NCBI RefSeq assembly: GCF_003334405.1
Contig: NZ_QOWM01000003.1
Reading direction: 5' to 3' (one strand)
DNA from: Escherichia coli
GTDB lineage: Bacteria; Pseudomonadota; Gammaproteobacteria; Enterobacterales; Enterobacteriaceae
DNA length: 64,000 nt
In this document: piece by piece, positions 3,326-7,842 of the stretch
Layout: the number at the start of each line of letters is the position of its first letter
Position numbering within the stretch: the first letter of the stretch is position 1
Position numbers and translations under genes: made by a program
Notes under the pieces: generated by a model
Database searches by the model: none
What the model was told of the DNA's origin: nothing
Seen by the model: the letters and a program-made list of their open reading frames with translations, nothing else

Positions 3326-3559
3326 ATACAGCGAACTCCATTGGTTTAGTTGGATATTTACTGTGCTGGACAAAAACGGTTTGCGGGGAAATCTTAGTTA
3401 AGTAGAATGACTGCGGGTGCTTGAGGCTATCTGCCTCGGGCATGGACACCAACGGCAGATAGAGAAAAGCCCCAGTTAACATTACGCGTCCTGCAAGACG
3501 CTTAACATTAATCTGAGGCCAATTTCATGCTAGACACATGTAGGTTAGCCTCTTACGTG

Positions 3560-5200
3560 CCGAAAGGCACGGAGAAGCAGGCTATTGTTAACACCAAGCT
3601 GTAATGTCCCCTTTGAACCATTCTAAAATGTCCCCAGACAATTCTCTGGGGGATTTTTCATGATCAAAGAGACTGTTACGATGAGTCATAAGGAACTCCA
3701 CCGACTTCAGATTATTCAGGAACAAGCTGCGGCACGCATTGGCATTTCTATTCGGCAGGTTAAACGTCTGGTGCAACGGTATAGAAATGAAGGGCCTTCT
3801 GGTCTGGTTTCCCACCGACGTGGAAAGCGTCCTAATAATTCCTTTTCTACTGAATTCAGAGCAACAGTAATTTCACTCCTCAAAGGCCGTTACGCTGATT
3901 TTGGACCTACGTTTGCGTGCGAAAAATTGCGCGAGATACACGGTTTATCTTTATCCGTTGAAACTCTCAGAAAGTGGATGATAGAAGAGGGGTTATGGCG
4001 TGAACGCCGTCGTAAAATTGCCCGTATATATCAACGCCGCATGCGACGACCATCTTACGGTGAACTGATCCAGATTGATGGCTCACCTCATGACTGGTTT
4101 GAAAATCGAGGCCCCAGATGTACACTGATCGTTTTCATTGATGATGCCACCAGTGCGTTGATGGCGTTGCGTTTTGTGCCTGCTGAAACAACCCGGGCTT
4201 ACATGGAAACCCTCCGGGGTTACCTTAATGATCATGGCGTACCGCTCGCTCTCTACTCTGATAGACACAGTATATTCAGGGTAAATAACCCAGAGCGGGA
4301 AGGTGAGCTGACCCAGTTCACTCGTGCGATAAAGACACTGGGCATCGAGCCAATCCATGCCAACAGCCCGCAGGCAAAAGGGCGGGTAGAGCGCGCCAAT
4401 CAGACACTACAGGACAGGCTGGTCAAAGAAATGCGGCTTCAGAATATCAGTGATATTGAAACAGCAAATGCATGGTTGCCGACCTTTATTGAAGCCTATA
4501 ACAACCGGTTCGCTACGTCGCCTCGTACTACTGATAATGCTCATCTTGATGTGCACCATTCTGAAGAGGAACTGGGTTATATCTTCAGCCTACAGGCGAA
4601 GCGCGTTCTGTCTAAAAATCTCACTTTCCAGTACAAAAGCAGTGCGTTTCAGGTACGCAGTGAGGGCCGGGGATATCGACTTAGGCATTCGGTTGTTACT
4701 GTATGCGAGAACTTTGACGGTGAAATTAACGTTCTGTATGACGGGAAAGCGCTGGGCTGGGAAAAGTATGTTGATGGCCCGGAGCCTATACCACTGGATG
4801 ATGAAAAGAGTGTCCATGAACGAGTGGATAATGCCCGTATTGATTTACGCTCAAAATACTATGTTAAACCTAAAGCTGACCATCCCTGGCTTACGCGCCG
4901 AACGCAAAGTCATCAGCAAGTTAAGCCCCCGAAGTTACCTAAAAAGAAGCCTGATCCCGATAAAAAAGATTGAAACCAAGATCGATTCGGTTGAGTGCAT
5001 ATCCATTCATAGGGTAGATTCTTAAGTCGCGTTTCTGGTGTTCATTTTCGGGTGGTTTGTTACTTGTTTTACCGGGGATATGCCAGAAACGCGCTGAGTC
5101 AGTCTGGGCGGTGCGCGTAATGAGGCGTTATGGTAAATAGCCTATGCTAATGTCCGCTAAGAGCAAGAAGCGGAAGTTGGCAGTTTTGTGGACTGTCCCC
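3560..5200 (+). mobile_element. insertion sequence carrying the DDE transposase; ends not resolved
   Basis: Single transposase ORF flanked by non-coding sequence. I could not find clean terminal inverted repeats or a target-site duplication by eye, so boundaries are approximate. Confidence 0.45.
3660..4973 (+). CDS. DDE transposase with N-terminal HTH and rve/integrase-core domain (ISNCY/IS1202-like or IS481-like)
   Basis: 437 aa. N-terminal HTH (IGISIRQVKRLVQRY), then D (QIDGSPHDW), D (LYSDRHS) and E (RVERANQT) in integrase-core spacing. Basic C-terminal tail. Confidence 0.8.
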   Translation: MIKETVTMSHKELHRLQIIQEQAAARIGISIRQVKRLVQRYRNEGPSGLVSHRRGKRPNNSFSTEFRATVISLLKGRYADFGPTFACEKLREIHGLSLSVETLRKWMIEEGLWRERRRKIARIYQRRMRRPSYGELIQIDGSPHDWFENRGPRCTLIVFIDDATSALMALRFVPAETTRAYMETLRGYLNDHGVPLALYSDRHSIFRVNNPEREGELTQFTRAIKTLGIEPIHANSPQAKGRVERANQTLQDRLVKEMRLQNISDIETANAWLPTFIEAYNNRFATSPRTTDNAHLDVHHSEEELGYIFSLQAKRVLSKNLTFQYKSSAFQVRSEGRGYRLRHSVVTVCENFDGEINVLYDGKALGWEKYVDGPEPIPLDDEKSVHERVDNARIDLRSKYYVKPKADHPWLTRRTQSHQQVKPPKLPKKKPDPDKKD

Positions 5201-5409
5201 ACAAAAGTGACTACAGAAATAGTTGCAATTCATAATTGATCATGGGTTGTCAGTTAAACTCGTGGCGATTTAAATAGACTAATTGGGAGTGCGTCCATTA
5301 CTTATATCTTGTAATGTTAACTATCAGAAATGATACAAAGATAATATGTCTTTAAAGAAAAGGCTGATGGCGAAAAGTGGCCCGATGAGGGCCACAATAC
5401 GGCTGTCAC

Positions 5410-5742
5410 TTAGACGTAAATATCAATGGTGCCAGCGGTATTTGTATCGTCTTTTTTCTCTTCTTTTTTATCAGGCTGAACTGTCGCGTCTTCATTCTTT
5501 TTCTCTGCCTGCTGCCTTAACAACTGCTCCAGTTGAGCCCAGAGGCTTTCAATTTGCTTCTGTACCAATGCAGCCATTTCTTTTTTCTGCTGTGTCGTCA
5601 TCCCCTCTTCCGATGAGATTTTCCCAAGCTTTTCAGTCAGCACCTGAATTTGTCTTGTGATTTTGGCTATTTCTGATGTTCCTTCCGGGGCGGAGTTGTT
5701 TGAAATAACGGTTGAGGTATTTCCCTGAATTGTGACAGACAT
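5410..5742 (-). CDS. flxA: FlxA-like protein
   Basis: 110-aa protein recognised as Qin-prophage FlxA; AAGGAG RBS; sigma28-type promoter upstream. Confidence 0.85.
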   Translation of the reverse strand: MSVTIQGNTSTVISNNSAPEGTSEIAKITRQIQVLTEKLGKISSEEGMTTQQKKEMAALVQKQIESLWAQLEQLLRQQAEKKNEDATVQPDKKEEKKDDTNTAGTIDIYV

Positions 5743-5765
5743 AGATTTCTCCTTTTAAAAAAGCA

Positions 5766-5792
5766 CTATCGGCATGCACAAAAAAATCTTTA
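5766..5792 (-). promoter_or_regulatory. sigma28 (FliA) class-3 promoter of flxA
   Basis: On the minus strand TAAAGATT-N11-GCCGATAG, matching consensus TAAAGTTT-N11-GCCGATAA, about 25 nt upstream of the flxA start. Confidence 0.6.
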
Positions 5793-5944
5793 ATCGTATT
5801 TCTTGTGTCATTAATTGTTTGATGTTCAGATTGTTTTCCTCGCGGGCTGGCGCGCCTCAGAAAGTAAAGCTTGTTGACAGGGGTAAACGTTCGGCAATAA
5901 TTTTCTGCCGCATGCGGGTGTTGCATAAAACGTGTTACGTTCCT

Positions 5945-6250
5945 TTATCGACAGGTCAGGTCACCGCTCACCCGCCGACGAGAAAGCAACACTGACATGC
6001 TAAAGCAAAAAATAGATGAATAAGTTGAGTTGTGCATATGTAGCCTGACCGTCACAAAGTATATGGTGTCTGTACCAGTAAGATGATGGCCGGACTCTTT
6101 AAAAACGAGCTGACCTGCACAATACAGGATGGACTTAGCAATGGCTGCTCCTGGCACAAAGCGGACAGTGATCACCGTTCTTACGACTACTTTCTGACTT
6201 CCTTCGTGACTTGCCCTAAGCATGTTGTAGTGCGATACTTGTAATGACAT
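5945..6250 (-). CDS. ydfV: YdfV-like hypothetical protein
   Basis: 101-aa ORF positioned between flxA and relB as in Qin. Its 5' end lies over the relBE operator on the opposite strand, so coding status is uncertain. Confidence 0.5.
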   Translation of the reverse strand: MSLQVSHYNMLRASHEGSQKVVVRTVITVRFVPGAAIAKSILYCAGQLVFKESGHHLTGTDTIYFVTVRLHMHNSTYSSIFCFSMSVLLSRRRVSGDLTCR

Positions 6251-6266
6251 TTGTAATTACAAGAGG
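6236..6266 (+). promoter_or_regulatory. relBE operator/promoter (relO-like TTGTAAT repeats)
   Basis: TTGTAATGACATTTGTAATTACAAG with a TTGTAATTACAA palindrome immediately upstream of relB. Confidence 0.55.
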
Positions 6267-6274
6267 TGTAAGAC

Positions 6275-6514
6275 ATGGGTAGCATTAACCTGCGTATTGA
6301 CGATGAACTTAAAGCGCGTTCTTACGCCGCGCTTGAAAAAATGGGTGTAACTCCTTCTGAAGCGCTTCGTCTCATGCTCGAGTATATCGCTGACAATGAA
6401 CGCTTGCCGTTCAAACAGACACTCCTGAGTGATGAAGATGCTGAACTTGTGGAGATAGTGAAAGAACGGCTTCGTAATCCTAAGCCAGTACGTGTGACGC
6501 TGGATGAACTCTGA
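6275..6514 (+). CDS. relB: RelB antitoxin
   Basis: 79 aa, recognised as RelB; stop overlaps relE start (ATGA coupling). Confidence 0.9.
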   Translation: MGSINLRIDDELKARSYAALEKMGVTPSEALRLMLEYIADNERLPFKQTLLSDEDAELVEIVKERLRNPKPVRVTLDEL

Positions 6515-6801
6515 TGGCGTATTTTCTGGATTTTGACGAGCGGGCACTAAAGGAATGGCGAAAGCTGGGCTCGACGGTACGTGAACAGTTGAAAAAGAAG
6601 CTGGTTGAAGTACTTGAGTCACCCCGGATTGAAGCAAACAAGCTCCGTGGTATGCCTGATTGTTACAAGATTAAGCTCCGGTCTTCAGGCTATCGCCTTG
6701 TATACCAGGTTATAGACGAGAAAGTTGTCGTTTTCGTGATTTCTGTTGGGAAAAGAGAACGCTCGGAAGTATATAGCGAGGCGGTCAAACGCATTCTCTG
6801 A
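6514..6801 (+). CDS. relE: RelE mRNA interferase toxin
   Basis: 95 aa, recognised as RelE. Confidence 0.9.
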   Translation: MAYFLDFDERALKEWRKLGSTVREQLKKKLVEVLESPRIEANKLRGMPDCYKIKLRSSGYRLVYQVIDEKVVVFVISVGKRERSEVYSEAVKRIL

Positions 6802-6872
6802 ACCAAAGCATGACATCTCTGTTTCGCACCGAAGGTGACACTTCTGCTTTGCGTTGACAGGAGAAGCAGGCT

Positions 6873-7028
6873 ATGAAGCAGCAAAAGGCGATGTTAATCG
6901 CCCTGATCGTCATCTGTTTAACCGTCATAGTGACGGCACTGGTAACGAGGAAAGACCTCTGCGAGGTACGAATCCGAACCGGCCAGACGGAGGTCGCTGT
7001 CTTCACAGCTTACGAACCTGAGGAGTAA
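6873..7028 (+). CDS. hokD: Hok-family small membrane toxin
   Basis: 51 aa MKQQKAMLIALIVICLTVIVTALVTRKDLCEVRIRTGQTEVAVFTAYEPEE; below ORF-track cut-off, found by hand translation downstream of relE. Confidence 0.8.
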   Translation: MKQQKAMLIALIVICLTVIVTALVTRKDLCEVRIRTGQTEVAVFTAYEPEE

Positions 7029-7244
7029 GAGACCCGGCGGGGGAGAAATCCCTCGCCACCTCTGATGTGGCAGGCATCCTCAACGCACCCGCACTTAACC
7101 CGCTTCGGCGGGTTTTTGTTTTTATTTTCAACGCGTTTGAAGTTCTGGACGGTGCCGGAATAGAATCAAAAATACTTAAGTAGCGCGCAGGGATAAGAGG
7201 GATGGTCCCTTAAAGGGGAGAGCTAATTATCCGGAAGGATTCTG

Positions 7245-7496
7245 ATGATGAACATCGAAGAACTGCGTAAAATTTTTTGTGAAGATGGCCTCTATGCTGT
7301 GTGCGTTGAAAATGGAAATCTTGTTAGTCATTACCGCATTATGTGTTTGCGAAAGAATGGGGCTGCGTTAATTAATTTTGTGGATGCTCGGGTCACGGAC
7401 GGATTTATCTTGCGCGAAGGTGAGTTTGTCACTTCATTACAGGCATTGAAAGAGATCGGAATAAAAGCTGGCTTTTCTGCTTTTTCAGGAGAATAA
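7245..7496 (+). CDS. rem: Rem-like protein
   Basis: 83-aa ORF at the Qin rem position. Confidence 0.7.
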   Translation: MMNIEELRKIFCEDGLYAVCVENGNLVSHYRIMCLRKNGAALINFVDARVTDGFILREGEFVTSLQALKEIGIKAGFSAFSGE

Positions 7497-7562
7497 ACTC
7501 ATCTACAATCTTGCGCGGGGCTGAACTCCCGCTGAGTAACACCGTGCCACCGGAGAAAACCG

Positions 7563-7841
7563 ATGGCACGCAACGCAAAATATTACAATTCTGATAATTC
7601 GCCCGTTCTTGCCTGCACGCACGGGCGGTATTCTCACGCATTCAAGTCTGAATGGTTCCAGCACCCTCCATGCACTGCAGAACAGGCCGAATGGCTGATT
7701 CATTCTTACCGCAGGCGCGGGTTCGAGGTTAAGAAAGCTCTCAGTCTCGACTATCGGCACTGGATAATCTCTGTCAGGCTGCCTTATTCCGAACGCCCAC
7801 CACGTGCGTCCCGCACTTTCCAGCAACGGATCTGGAGGTAA
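7563..7841 (+). CDS. hypothetical protein (92 aa) upstream of ydfU
   Basis: ATG with GGAGAA RBS; ends 1 nt before the likely GTG start of ydfU. Confidence 0.5.
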   Translation: MARNAKYYNSDNSPVLACTHGRYSHAFKSEWFQHPPCTAEQAEWLIHSYRRRGFEVKKALSLDYRHWIISVRLPYSERPPRASRTFQQRIWR

Positions 7842-7842
7842 C

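Follow-up and report, generated by a model that had tools for sequence, protein, structure and literature searches.

The relB-relE-hokD (relBEF) operon of Escherichia coli, in which a type II toxin-antitoxin (TA) pair adjoins a gene of the Hok toxin family, is reported to have been described also by Bech in 1985 and by Gotfredsen and Gerdes in 1998. The relBEF operon of the Qin prophage of strain K-12 is well documented (Overgaard 2009, PMC2812701; Kasari 2013, PMC3598666): the toxin activity of RelE is neutralised by the Lon-labile antitoxin RelB, as established for K-12 proteins identical to those discussed here (PMC2812701), a single relBEF transcript is seen on Northern blots (PMC3598666), co-transcription has been stated (PMC5120126), and the relF (hokD) portion of the mRNA accumulates after its toxin-induced cleavage (PMC3598666). 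The lack of canonical hok/sok components at hokD has been ascribed to 'genomic rearrangements' (PMC12214031) and to 'integration of relBE acquired from plasmids' (PMC6379469); PMC12214031 attributes hokD to 'rearrangement' and not to insertion. In the present work, we have analysed a stretch of 64,000 nucleotides from E. coli (assembly GCF_003334405.1, contig NZ_QOWM01000003.1; hereafter the window) and consider it very probable that it contains the relBEF operon of a Qin-type prophage in which an element of the IS1202 family lies between hokD and its sok/mok leader, the annotated open reading frame (ORF) ydfV being a junction ORF that most likely does not yield a protein.

The region 5945-7028 contains four ORFs (viz. 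ydfV on the minus strand, relB, relE and hokD) and is the relBEF operon of a Qin-type lambdoid E. coli prophage together with the annotated divergent ORF ydfV. An earlier note on this DNA had proposed that a type II RelBE system and a Hok-family hokD adjoin one another here, and this is confirmed by family matches and by 100% identity to K-12-type genomes. Positions 4789-7250 are 100% identical to the K-12 Qin prophage, the K-12-type match of 5700-7250 bears the RefSeq gene names flxA, ydfV, relB, relE, hokD and rem, and RefSeq places this block in K-12-type genomes within the Qin prophage, with dicC on one side and ydfT, the Q antiterminator gene, on the other. The block is present in about 1150 of 5426 complete E. 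coli genomes, and PhiR42_1, an inducible phage of ECOR13, bears it as well. The window shares with K-12 relBEF the operator, the gene order and the spacers of 24 nt and 71 nt, and differs from it in keeping a complete transposase gene and an orphaned hok/sok leader. Everything to the left of window position 4789 is gone from K-12, where 'ydfW' is the C-terminal stump of the transposase, and the element structure is for this reason invisible in that strain; leader and transposase are both retained in 672 genomes.

The leader was found by a gathering-threshold Rfam scan of the whole window. The features of the element and its surroundings, as we read them, are the following (strand in brackets where there is one):

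3415-3585 (+): orphaned hok-mRNA leader with tac element, mok start and sok region; Rfam RF01794 at 3415-3586, 104 bits, E 1.5e-22, colinear with intact loci.
3571-3585: left copy of the putative target-site duplication, 15 bp, GGAGAAGCAGGCTAT; exact repeat of 6860-6874, single copy in STEC005.
3586-3611 (+): left inverted repeat (IRL), TGTTAACACCAAGCTGTAATGTCCCC; 19/26 to the reverse complement of 6834-6859, and the same in five plasmid or phage copies.
3660-4973 (+): transposase of the ISNCY/IS1202 family (ISEsa1-like), 437 aa; NF033594, 456 bits (cut-off 250), 99.7% identical to annotated ISEsa1.
5152-5174: palindromic site L, GTCCGCT-N10-AGCGGA; inner end of the left arm, where homology with other copies stops, and left edge of the module in strain KW21.
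5410-5742 (-): flxA, the cargo gene of the element; an ORF, FlxA-like in RefSeq, PHROG 11044.
5945-6250 (-): ydfV, ORF of 101 codons; codons 1 to about 33 lie in the relBE arm and about 34 to 101 in the flxA module.
6143-6165: palindromic site R, GGCTGCT-N10-AGCGGA; inner end of the relBE arm, in ydfV codons 29-36; four of four relBE arms begin here, and it is the right edge of the KW21 module.
6275-6514 (+): relB, antitoxin, 79 aa; NF008412, 133 bits (cut-off 96).
6514-6801 (+): relE, toxin, 95 aa; TIGR02385, 54.7 bits (cut-off 27.9), PHROG 1213.
6834-6859 (+): right inverted repeat (IRR), ending in GGTGACACTTCTGCTTTGCGTTGACA; 3' part of the relE-hokD spacer, identical in plasmid copies with other flanks.
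6860-6874: right copy of the putative target-site duplication; supplies the Shine-Dalgarno sequence (SD; GGAG) of hokD and the AT of its ATG.
6873-7028 (+): hokD (relF), Hok toxin, 51 aa; PHROG 251, E 2.8e-33, 100% identical to RefSeq HokD.
7074-7114 (+): hokD 3' fbi element and intrinsic terminator (terminator 7097-7114); identical to intact loci.

The putative element measures 3274 bp (3586-6859) and lies between the leader and hokD. It consists of a left arm (3586-5178), which corresponds to the catalogued ISEsa1, a cargo segment (5150-6166) holding flxA and the C-terminal two-thirds of ydfV, and a right arm (about 6144-6859) with relB and relE, their promoter and operator, and the right inverted repeat. 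The terminal repeats agree at 19 of 26 positions (binomial P 3.6e-7), or at 22 of 31, and form the best reverse-complement match in the whole window. When 3586-6874 is removed in silico, what remains is colinear with the intact leader-hokD-rem locus of strain STEC005, a matching empty site, with 98.3% identity over 1272 nt, a gapless junction and the 15-mer present once. The end of the leader (GGAGAAGCAGGCTAT, followed by TGTTAAC) falls inside the former hok start codon; a residual mok frame would stop within the left inverted repeat, at about 3608. The transposase ORF is intact but 27 bp (9 codons, in-frame, at 3715/3716) shorter than in plasmid copies, and both forms occur in IMG/VR, in elements of 3274 and of 3301/3302 bp. 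The absence of sok near hokD would thus be due to a relBE-carrying transposon of the IS1202 family that parts the gene from its leader.

The arms and the cargo segment also occur in other combinations. In strain KW21 the flxA module (5150-6166, 1017 bp) is present with both palindromes and without relBE, and plasmids carry the relB-proximal part (from about 6144) without flxA. The two 23-bp palindromes look like recombination sites. Corresponding palindrome or module positions in other loci are 2451-3467 in L005 and 959-981 and 2497-2519 in L007, and in IncHI2 plasmids the IS110-family element ISEsa2 is inserted exactly within the left palindrome. In a published listing ISEsa1 is an insertion sequence (IS) of 1609 bp whose inverted repeat is 15/22 and for which a duplication could not be detected (Harmer & Hall 2023, PMC10132070). 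An inverted repeat was looked for at the catalogued end of ISEsa1 (about 1.6 kb), where the best match in this window is 10/22, and the listing without a duplication fits a true right end that lies beyond relBE.

Other cargo is found between these two arms elsewhere, and in each such copy the flanking repeat matches the local target:

IncHI2 plasmid p112298-catA: 6093 bp; cytochrome b and CDF transporter, with ISEsa2 in site L; repeat GGAGAAGAAGGCCAT; target a different hok.
Citrobacter sp. Y3 IncFIB plasmid: 4600 bp; cytochrome b and CDF transporter; repeat GGAGAAGTAAGCTATG; target a hok after psiB-psiA.
Klebsiella plasmid: 12843 bp; ncr nickel-resistance genes and chrB; repeat GGAGTTGTATGGGTCC; target an ISKpn28 end.
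Enterobacter plasmid: 12843 bp; ncr nickel-resistance genes and chromate transporter; repeat GGAGATGTATGGG; target the point where a hok leader meets an ISKpn28 end.

A scan of IMG/VR for exact matches to the right-end 19-mer gave 46 loci, 25 of which are the Qin-type insertion with its 15-bp repeat. In one further locus the same element, 3301 bp long, occupies a site other than hok and is flanked by a 6-bp repeat, and two loci of one genome (L021 and L053) show a fourth hok allele as the target (TGGAGGGGCTATGATG). Copies occupy the same position in at least three hok alleles besides hokD, with duplications of 13-16 bp, and in every hok case the duplication starts at the hok SD (GGAG). In the genome with L021 and L053, one copy lies in hokD and one in the other hok allele and their flanks are apparently exchanged, which implies recombination between prophages through the element. 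A 2261-bp copy (L025), considered as a cargo-less minimal element, turned out to have an internal deletion of the transposase.

The cargo seen in these copies comprises flxA, nickel and chromate resistance genes, and cytochrome b with a CDF transporter. On this basis we lean towards a wider reading, in which relBE is the constant right-end module of a set of unrecognised ISEsa1 (IS1202-family) transposons with a palindrome-bounded cargo bay, which would insert preferentially, and in one orientation, at the SD and start codon of plasmid and prophage hok genes, giving a duplication of 13-16 bp, each insertion uncoupling hok from mok and Sok and turning it into a third gene under RelB/RelE control. 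The classical relBEF operon would be one such event, and the listing of ISEsa1 without a duplication would be explained. Several points weigh against these readings. The repeat is 6 bp long in one copy and 13 bp in another, not 15-16 bp; most of the Qin-type copies derive from one insertion event, the truly independent events numbering about five and not dozens; we infer the transposon from structure alone, and its mobility from the four sizes of cargo and some five independent sites of insertion; and the ydfV ORF is intact in about 1150 genomes, transcribed and regulated.

The course of events that we propose is as follows. The element would have moved in one piece to the site where translation starts in an intact hok/sok locus. 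A staggered 15-bp cut would there have left the SD and an 'AT' on both sides, so that hokD retained what looks like a working SD-ATG and the leader copy came to read ATT. By this step hokD would have lost its tac element, mok start and Sok target, and its only transcription would now be read-through that begins at the promoter autoregulated by RelB/RelE and crosses the right inverted repeat; any Sok still produced from 3415-3585 would have no target on the relBEF mRNA. ydfV would exist only by virtue of an ATG within a RelB hexad and about 300 adjoining nt without stops, and leftward transcription over relO may modulate relBE in the manner of an excludon.

In those Tn3-family transposons that carry a type II TA pair, the pair is a constant part of the transposition module, with other passengers that vary. 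The present element is like them in its constant TA pair and differs in its transposase family and mechanism; unlike them, it has the relBE pair at its extreme right end, with a promoter that reads out into the target gene. With the ISAjo2 group of the IS1202 family, the 'dif-site hunters' (PMC10132070), it shares the transposase family, imperfect repeats of 24-26 bp, a single orientation and a fixed position in a conserved target, and long duplications are likewise a feature of the IS1202 family (PMC10132070). Unlike the ISAjo2 group, its target is the hok SD and start codon and not dif, its duplication is 13-16 bp, and it has variable cargo and relBE beside the right repeat. The hokA, hokC and hokE loci of K-12 are disrupted by IS150 or IS186 (Pedersen & Gerdes 1999, as given in PMC12214031), and are likewise chromosomal hok loci altered by mobile elements; those IS have no TA pair and created no new promoter fusion.

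The earlier note saw no sok-like unit with hokD. This is correct for 5000-8000, where no sok-like match to Rfam RF01794 was found; the leader unit is nevertheless in the window, moved to 3415-3586. As a control, RF01794 is matched at E of about 1e-26 upstream of hokD in three other loci (beside a retron, beside paa and on a plasmid). Homology to three intact hokD loci starts about 14 nt before the hokD ATG (at about 6859), and the Hok peptide, SD, fbi element and terminator of hokD are identical to those of intact prophage hokD loci; against the NCBIfam Hok models HokD gives matches under the cut-off (48.5 bits vs 73). The relB stop and relE start overlap in TGATG (6512-6516), and from relB to rem just one site resembles a terminator, at 7097-7114, after hokD. 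In the canonical hok/mok/sok arrangement (plasmid R1; prophage hokD/hokW-sokW) the tac element, mok start and antisense sok stand directly upstream on the same transcript, which is not the case for hokD here: leader and toxin gene are 3.3 kb apart, and the relBEF mRNA, unlike a canonical hok mRNA, has no tac element, mok start or Sok target, and therefore Sok cannot act on it.

Folding recovered the tac-fbi pairing in an intact control locus. In the relBEF arrangement the end of the right repeat (UGCGUUGA, 6850-6857) is perfectly complementary to the fbi core (UCAACGCA, 7080-7087), and this 8-bp pairing appears in both the minimum free energy and the centroid folds, with a rough chance of about 0.02. 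The right repeat was considered as a tac mimic that would silence hokD via fbi; the pairing is absent with two other hok alleles and is probably a coincidence. Weak Rfam matches to isrK and rsmX on the hokD 3' untranslated region are far under the gathering scores and also found in intact loci, and were set aside as terminator-hairpin noise. Other gathering-level Rfam matches in the window lie at 10432-10824, 13334-13719, 17227-17425 and 21591-21711 (two cspA thermoregulator leaders, IS009 and MicC). Upstream of hok/sok in three other loci (L002, L003 and L004) there is an Ec67-type retron reverse transcriptase, a Paa adhesin or repL, which suggests that this site is a moron hot spot in lambdoid prophages and plasmids. 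Codon 47 of hokD (TAC in cTTACGAa, 7011-7013) holds a UACG core, which we take to be the TadA editing motif. A-to-I editing of hokD mRNA, at about 6% and changing Tyr to Cys, has been published (PMC12214031).

The alternative that survives best, which we nonetheless regard as unlikely, is that relBE-hokD is a selected two-toxin module, in which hok was recruited under RelB/RelE control, and not a by-product of where the element landed. That relBE is found fused to hok, with the spacer unchanged, in the case of at least four different hok alleles, that the duplication keeps the hok SD and ATG each time, and that the relF portion builds up after the toxin-induced cleavage of relBEF mRNA would all be in keeping with recruitment. 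The recurrence is, however, explained equally well by a target-site preference of the transposase; one copy occupies a site other than hok, in others an IS separates the element from hok, and the 8-bp pairing of IRR and fbi is not reproduced with other hok alleles.

The control region of relBE contains two features:

6211-6239 (+): predicted relBE promoter, TTGCCC-17-GATACT, read from the sequence, with a transcription start at about 6246.
6239-6262: relO operator, hexads TTGTAA / TGACAT / TTGTAA / TTACAA, from the sequence and PMC2812701.

A consensus promoter scan missed the predicted relBE promoter and gave only two matches, which is chance level. The predicted start puts relO at -10 to +17, in agreement with the published operator, which consists of four [A/T]TGT[A/C]A hexads and shows protection spanning -10 to +17 relative to the relBE start (PMC2812701). 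Three copies of TTGTAAT lie within 24 bp (6239-6245 on the plus strand, 6251-6257 on the plus strand and 6256-6262 on the minus strand) and build a 12-bp pseudo-palindrome with a perfect 12-bp palindrome directly after it, giving the four-hexad palindrome overlapping the promoter that marks an operator of the RelBE type; over the whole 64 kb the heptamer occurs 12 times against 10.95 expected, which is chance level. A direct repeat (CTTTCTGACTT / CTTCGTGACTT, 12 nt apart, 6190-6212) stands just 5' of the predicted relBE -35 and is kept in all relBE arms. In published work, relBEF transcripts longer than the operon were observed, and a relE/relF signal persists in a promoter-deletion strain (PMC3598666). 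Within the flxA module, a sigma-70-like site TTGACA-16-AATAAT (11/12; 5874-5901, plus strand) faces relBE and runs antisense to ydfV over the full length of the ORF; this promoter-like site could be the source of both the over-long transcripts and the residual signal. Upstream of flxA there is a predicted FliA (sigma-28) promoter match, TAAAGATT-N11-GCCGATAG (5766-5792, minus strand), which is consistent with FliA regulation of flxA.

The ORF ydfV had been described in the earlier note as ending 25 bp from relB and as covering the TTGTAAT repeats. It is in fact the 5' end of ydfV (ATG 6250-6248) that faces relB, at a distance of 24 nt, the two genes being divergent, and its overlap with the repeats is real for the left half-site of relO, with one of the three heptamers, the other two lying in the 24-nt spacer. 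The ATG of ydfV, on the minus strand, is formed by the first three bases of RelB hexad 2 (ATGTCA), and the predicted relBE start (about 6246) falls inside ydfV codon 2; since this ATG sits in the relBE 5' region, any ydfV mRNA overlaps the relBE 5' end.

The signatures of a conserved gene are absent from ydfV. In random sequence, 64 kb would be expected to hold about 44 ORFs of 100 aa or more, so that an ORF of 101 codons is not beyond chance. The codon log-likelihood of ydfV is -0.114, without frame preference and below the worst of 28 long ORFs of the window (mean +0.26); the values for relB, flxA and rem are +0.21 to +0.32. No purine-rich SD was found upstream of 6250, and YdfV has no family match in NCBIfam or PHROGs. 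A search of 5.8 billion proteins gave 31 matches, all near-identical DNA-level copies, and no distant homologue; in the comparison of protein-level with nucleotide-level conservation that the earlier note had put forward, none of the 31 proved to be a homologue that has diverged in DNA and yet been kept as protein. Among ydfV records 1214 of 1215 are at least 99% identical, as are the copies of either half, so that a dN/dS or synonymous-site test has no power.

The matches fall into two classes. Those of the first have residues 1-33 in common with YdfV and then continue into 22-34 codons of unrelated sequence (hosts: Citrobacter, Salmonella, Cronobacter, Enterobacter and Shigella sonnei), and those of the second have residues of about 33-101 behind unrelated N-termini; the break between the classes corresponds to window positions of about 6143-6166. 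The two portions (33 N-terminal and 68 C-terminal residues) are found apart, each with unrelated partners, because the ORF spans a cassette junction. In other copies of the element the ORF from the same ATG closes after 56-68 codons, as would be expected from random read-through, and in-frame deletions and truncations of ydfV exist in nature. To judge by these two classes, ydfV is an ORF in which no stop happens to occur across the cassette junction, and it is most likely not a functional protein. The earlier note's suggestion of a regulatory overlap or a non-coding artefact is thus apt in that conserved-gene signatures are lacking and a divergent overlap has been published, but it missed that ydfV is a chimera across a junction, that its ATG lies in a hexad of the operator and that hokD is the third gene on the known relBEF transcript.

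That ydfV is a real small protein coupled to relBE by a shared operator, such that RelB at relO would repress both divergent genes, appears to us distinctly improbable. The ORF is annotated in RefSeq and intact in about 1150 E. coli genomes, its transcript has been detected and responds to oxygen, MNNG and antibiotics (PMC12288877, PMC8910356, PMC6505713), and RNA polymerase holoenzyme binds the relB/ydfV spacer in genomic systematic evolution of ligands by exponential enrichment (SELEX; PMC3946193), all of which would be compatible with a gene. The chimeric make-up of ydfV, the early closure of ORFs from the same ATG in other copies, the natural deletions and truncations, the non-coding codon usage and the lack of an SD, a family or a distant homologue speak against a protein. 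In addition, the ydfV RNA is regulated and the protein was not detected (PMC8910356), and the suppression of rne lethality by ydfV::Tn10 is attributed to reduced RelB (PMC5436854) and is reversed by relB and not by ydfV (PMC12288877). The pair has been named as the relBE-ydfV 'excludon', with reciprocal expression under four antibiotics (ExcludonFinder, Nucleic Acids Research 2025, PMC12288877). The present locus contains the same gene pair, and its 24-nt spacer and the start inside ydfV give a compatible geometry; the excludon paper treats ydfV as a gene and a functional TA component, whereas here it appears as a junction chimera without a coding signature. If ydfV has an effect, the act of transcription or the RNA is a likelier cause than a protein.

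Least probable is the explanation that the hokD leader was lost by ordinary deletion or illegitimate recombination as a free plasmid relBE cassette integrated, with the repeats as coincidental microhomology: the published wording ('genomic rearrangement', PMC12214031; 'integration of relBE acquired from plasmids', PMC6379469) and the absence of both the leader and the left end of the element from K-12 accord with it, but this window and 672 genomes still contain the leader, the intervening DNA has a transposase, terminal inverted repeats, an exact 15-bp duplication and a clean empty site, and in four further hok alleles or flanks the local target sequence is matched by both copies of the repeat, an outcome that recombination at one ancestral junction would not give.

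The literature already covers the relBEF operon, its operator relO, hokD without sok and the overlap of relBE with ydfV, and the transposon context is probably a modest novelty. No paper linking ISEsa1 or ISNCY with relBE or hok was found in the literature covered, which included a hok survey preprint and did not extend to ISfinder and TnCentral. With ydfV read as a junction ORF, the phenotypes of ydfV insertions and mutations are better understood as effects on the relBE promoter and operator or as effects of antisense transcription, and the claim that 'ydfV is a component of the toxin-antitoxin system' is better read in the same way. If the transposon reading is true, relBE would serve as the addiction or stability module of a mobile element whose homing target is another TA locus, and the escape of hokD from Sok control would be a direct consequence of this homing. 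Deletion of relBE (e.g. in delta-10 TA strains) would then also remove the only promoter of hokD. The element would further provide a tractable case of sequence-specific targeting by the IS1202 family outside dif sites, and a textbook TA locus would have to be read differently.

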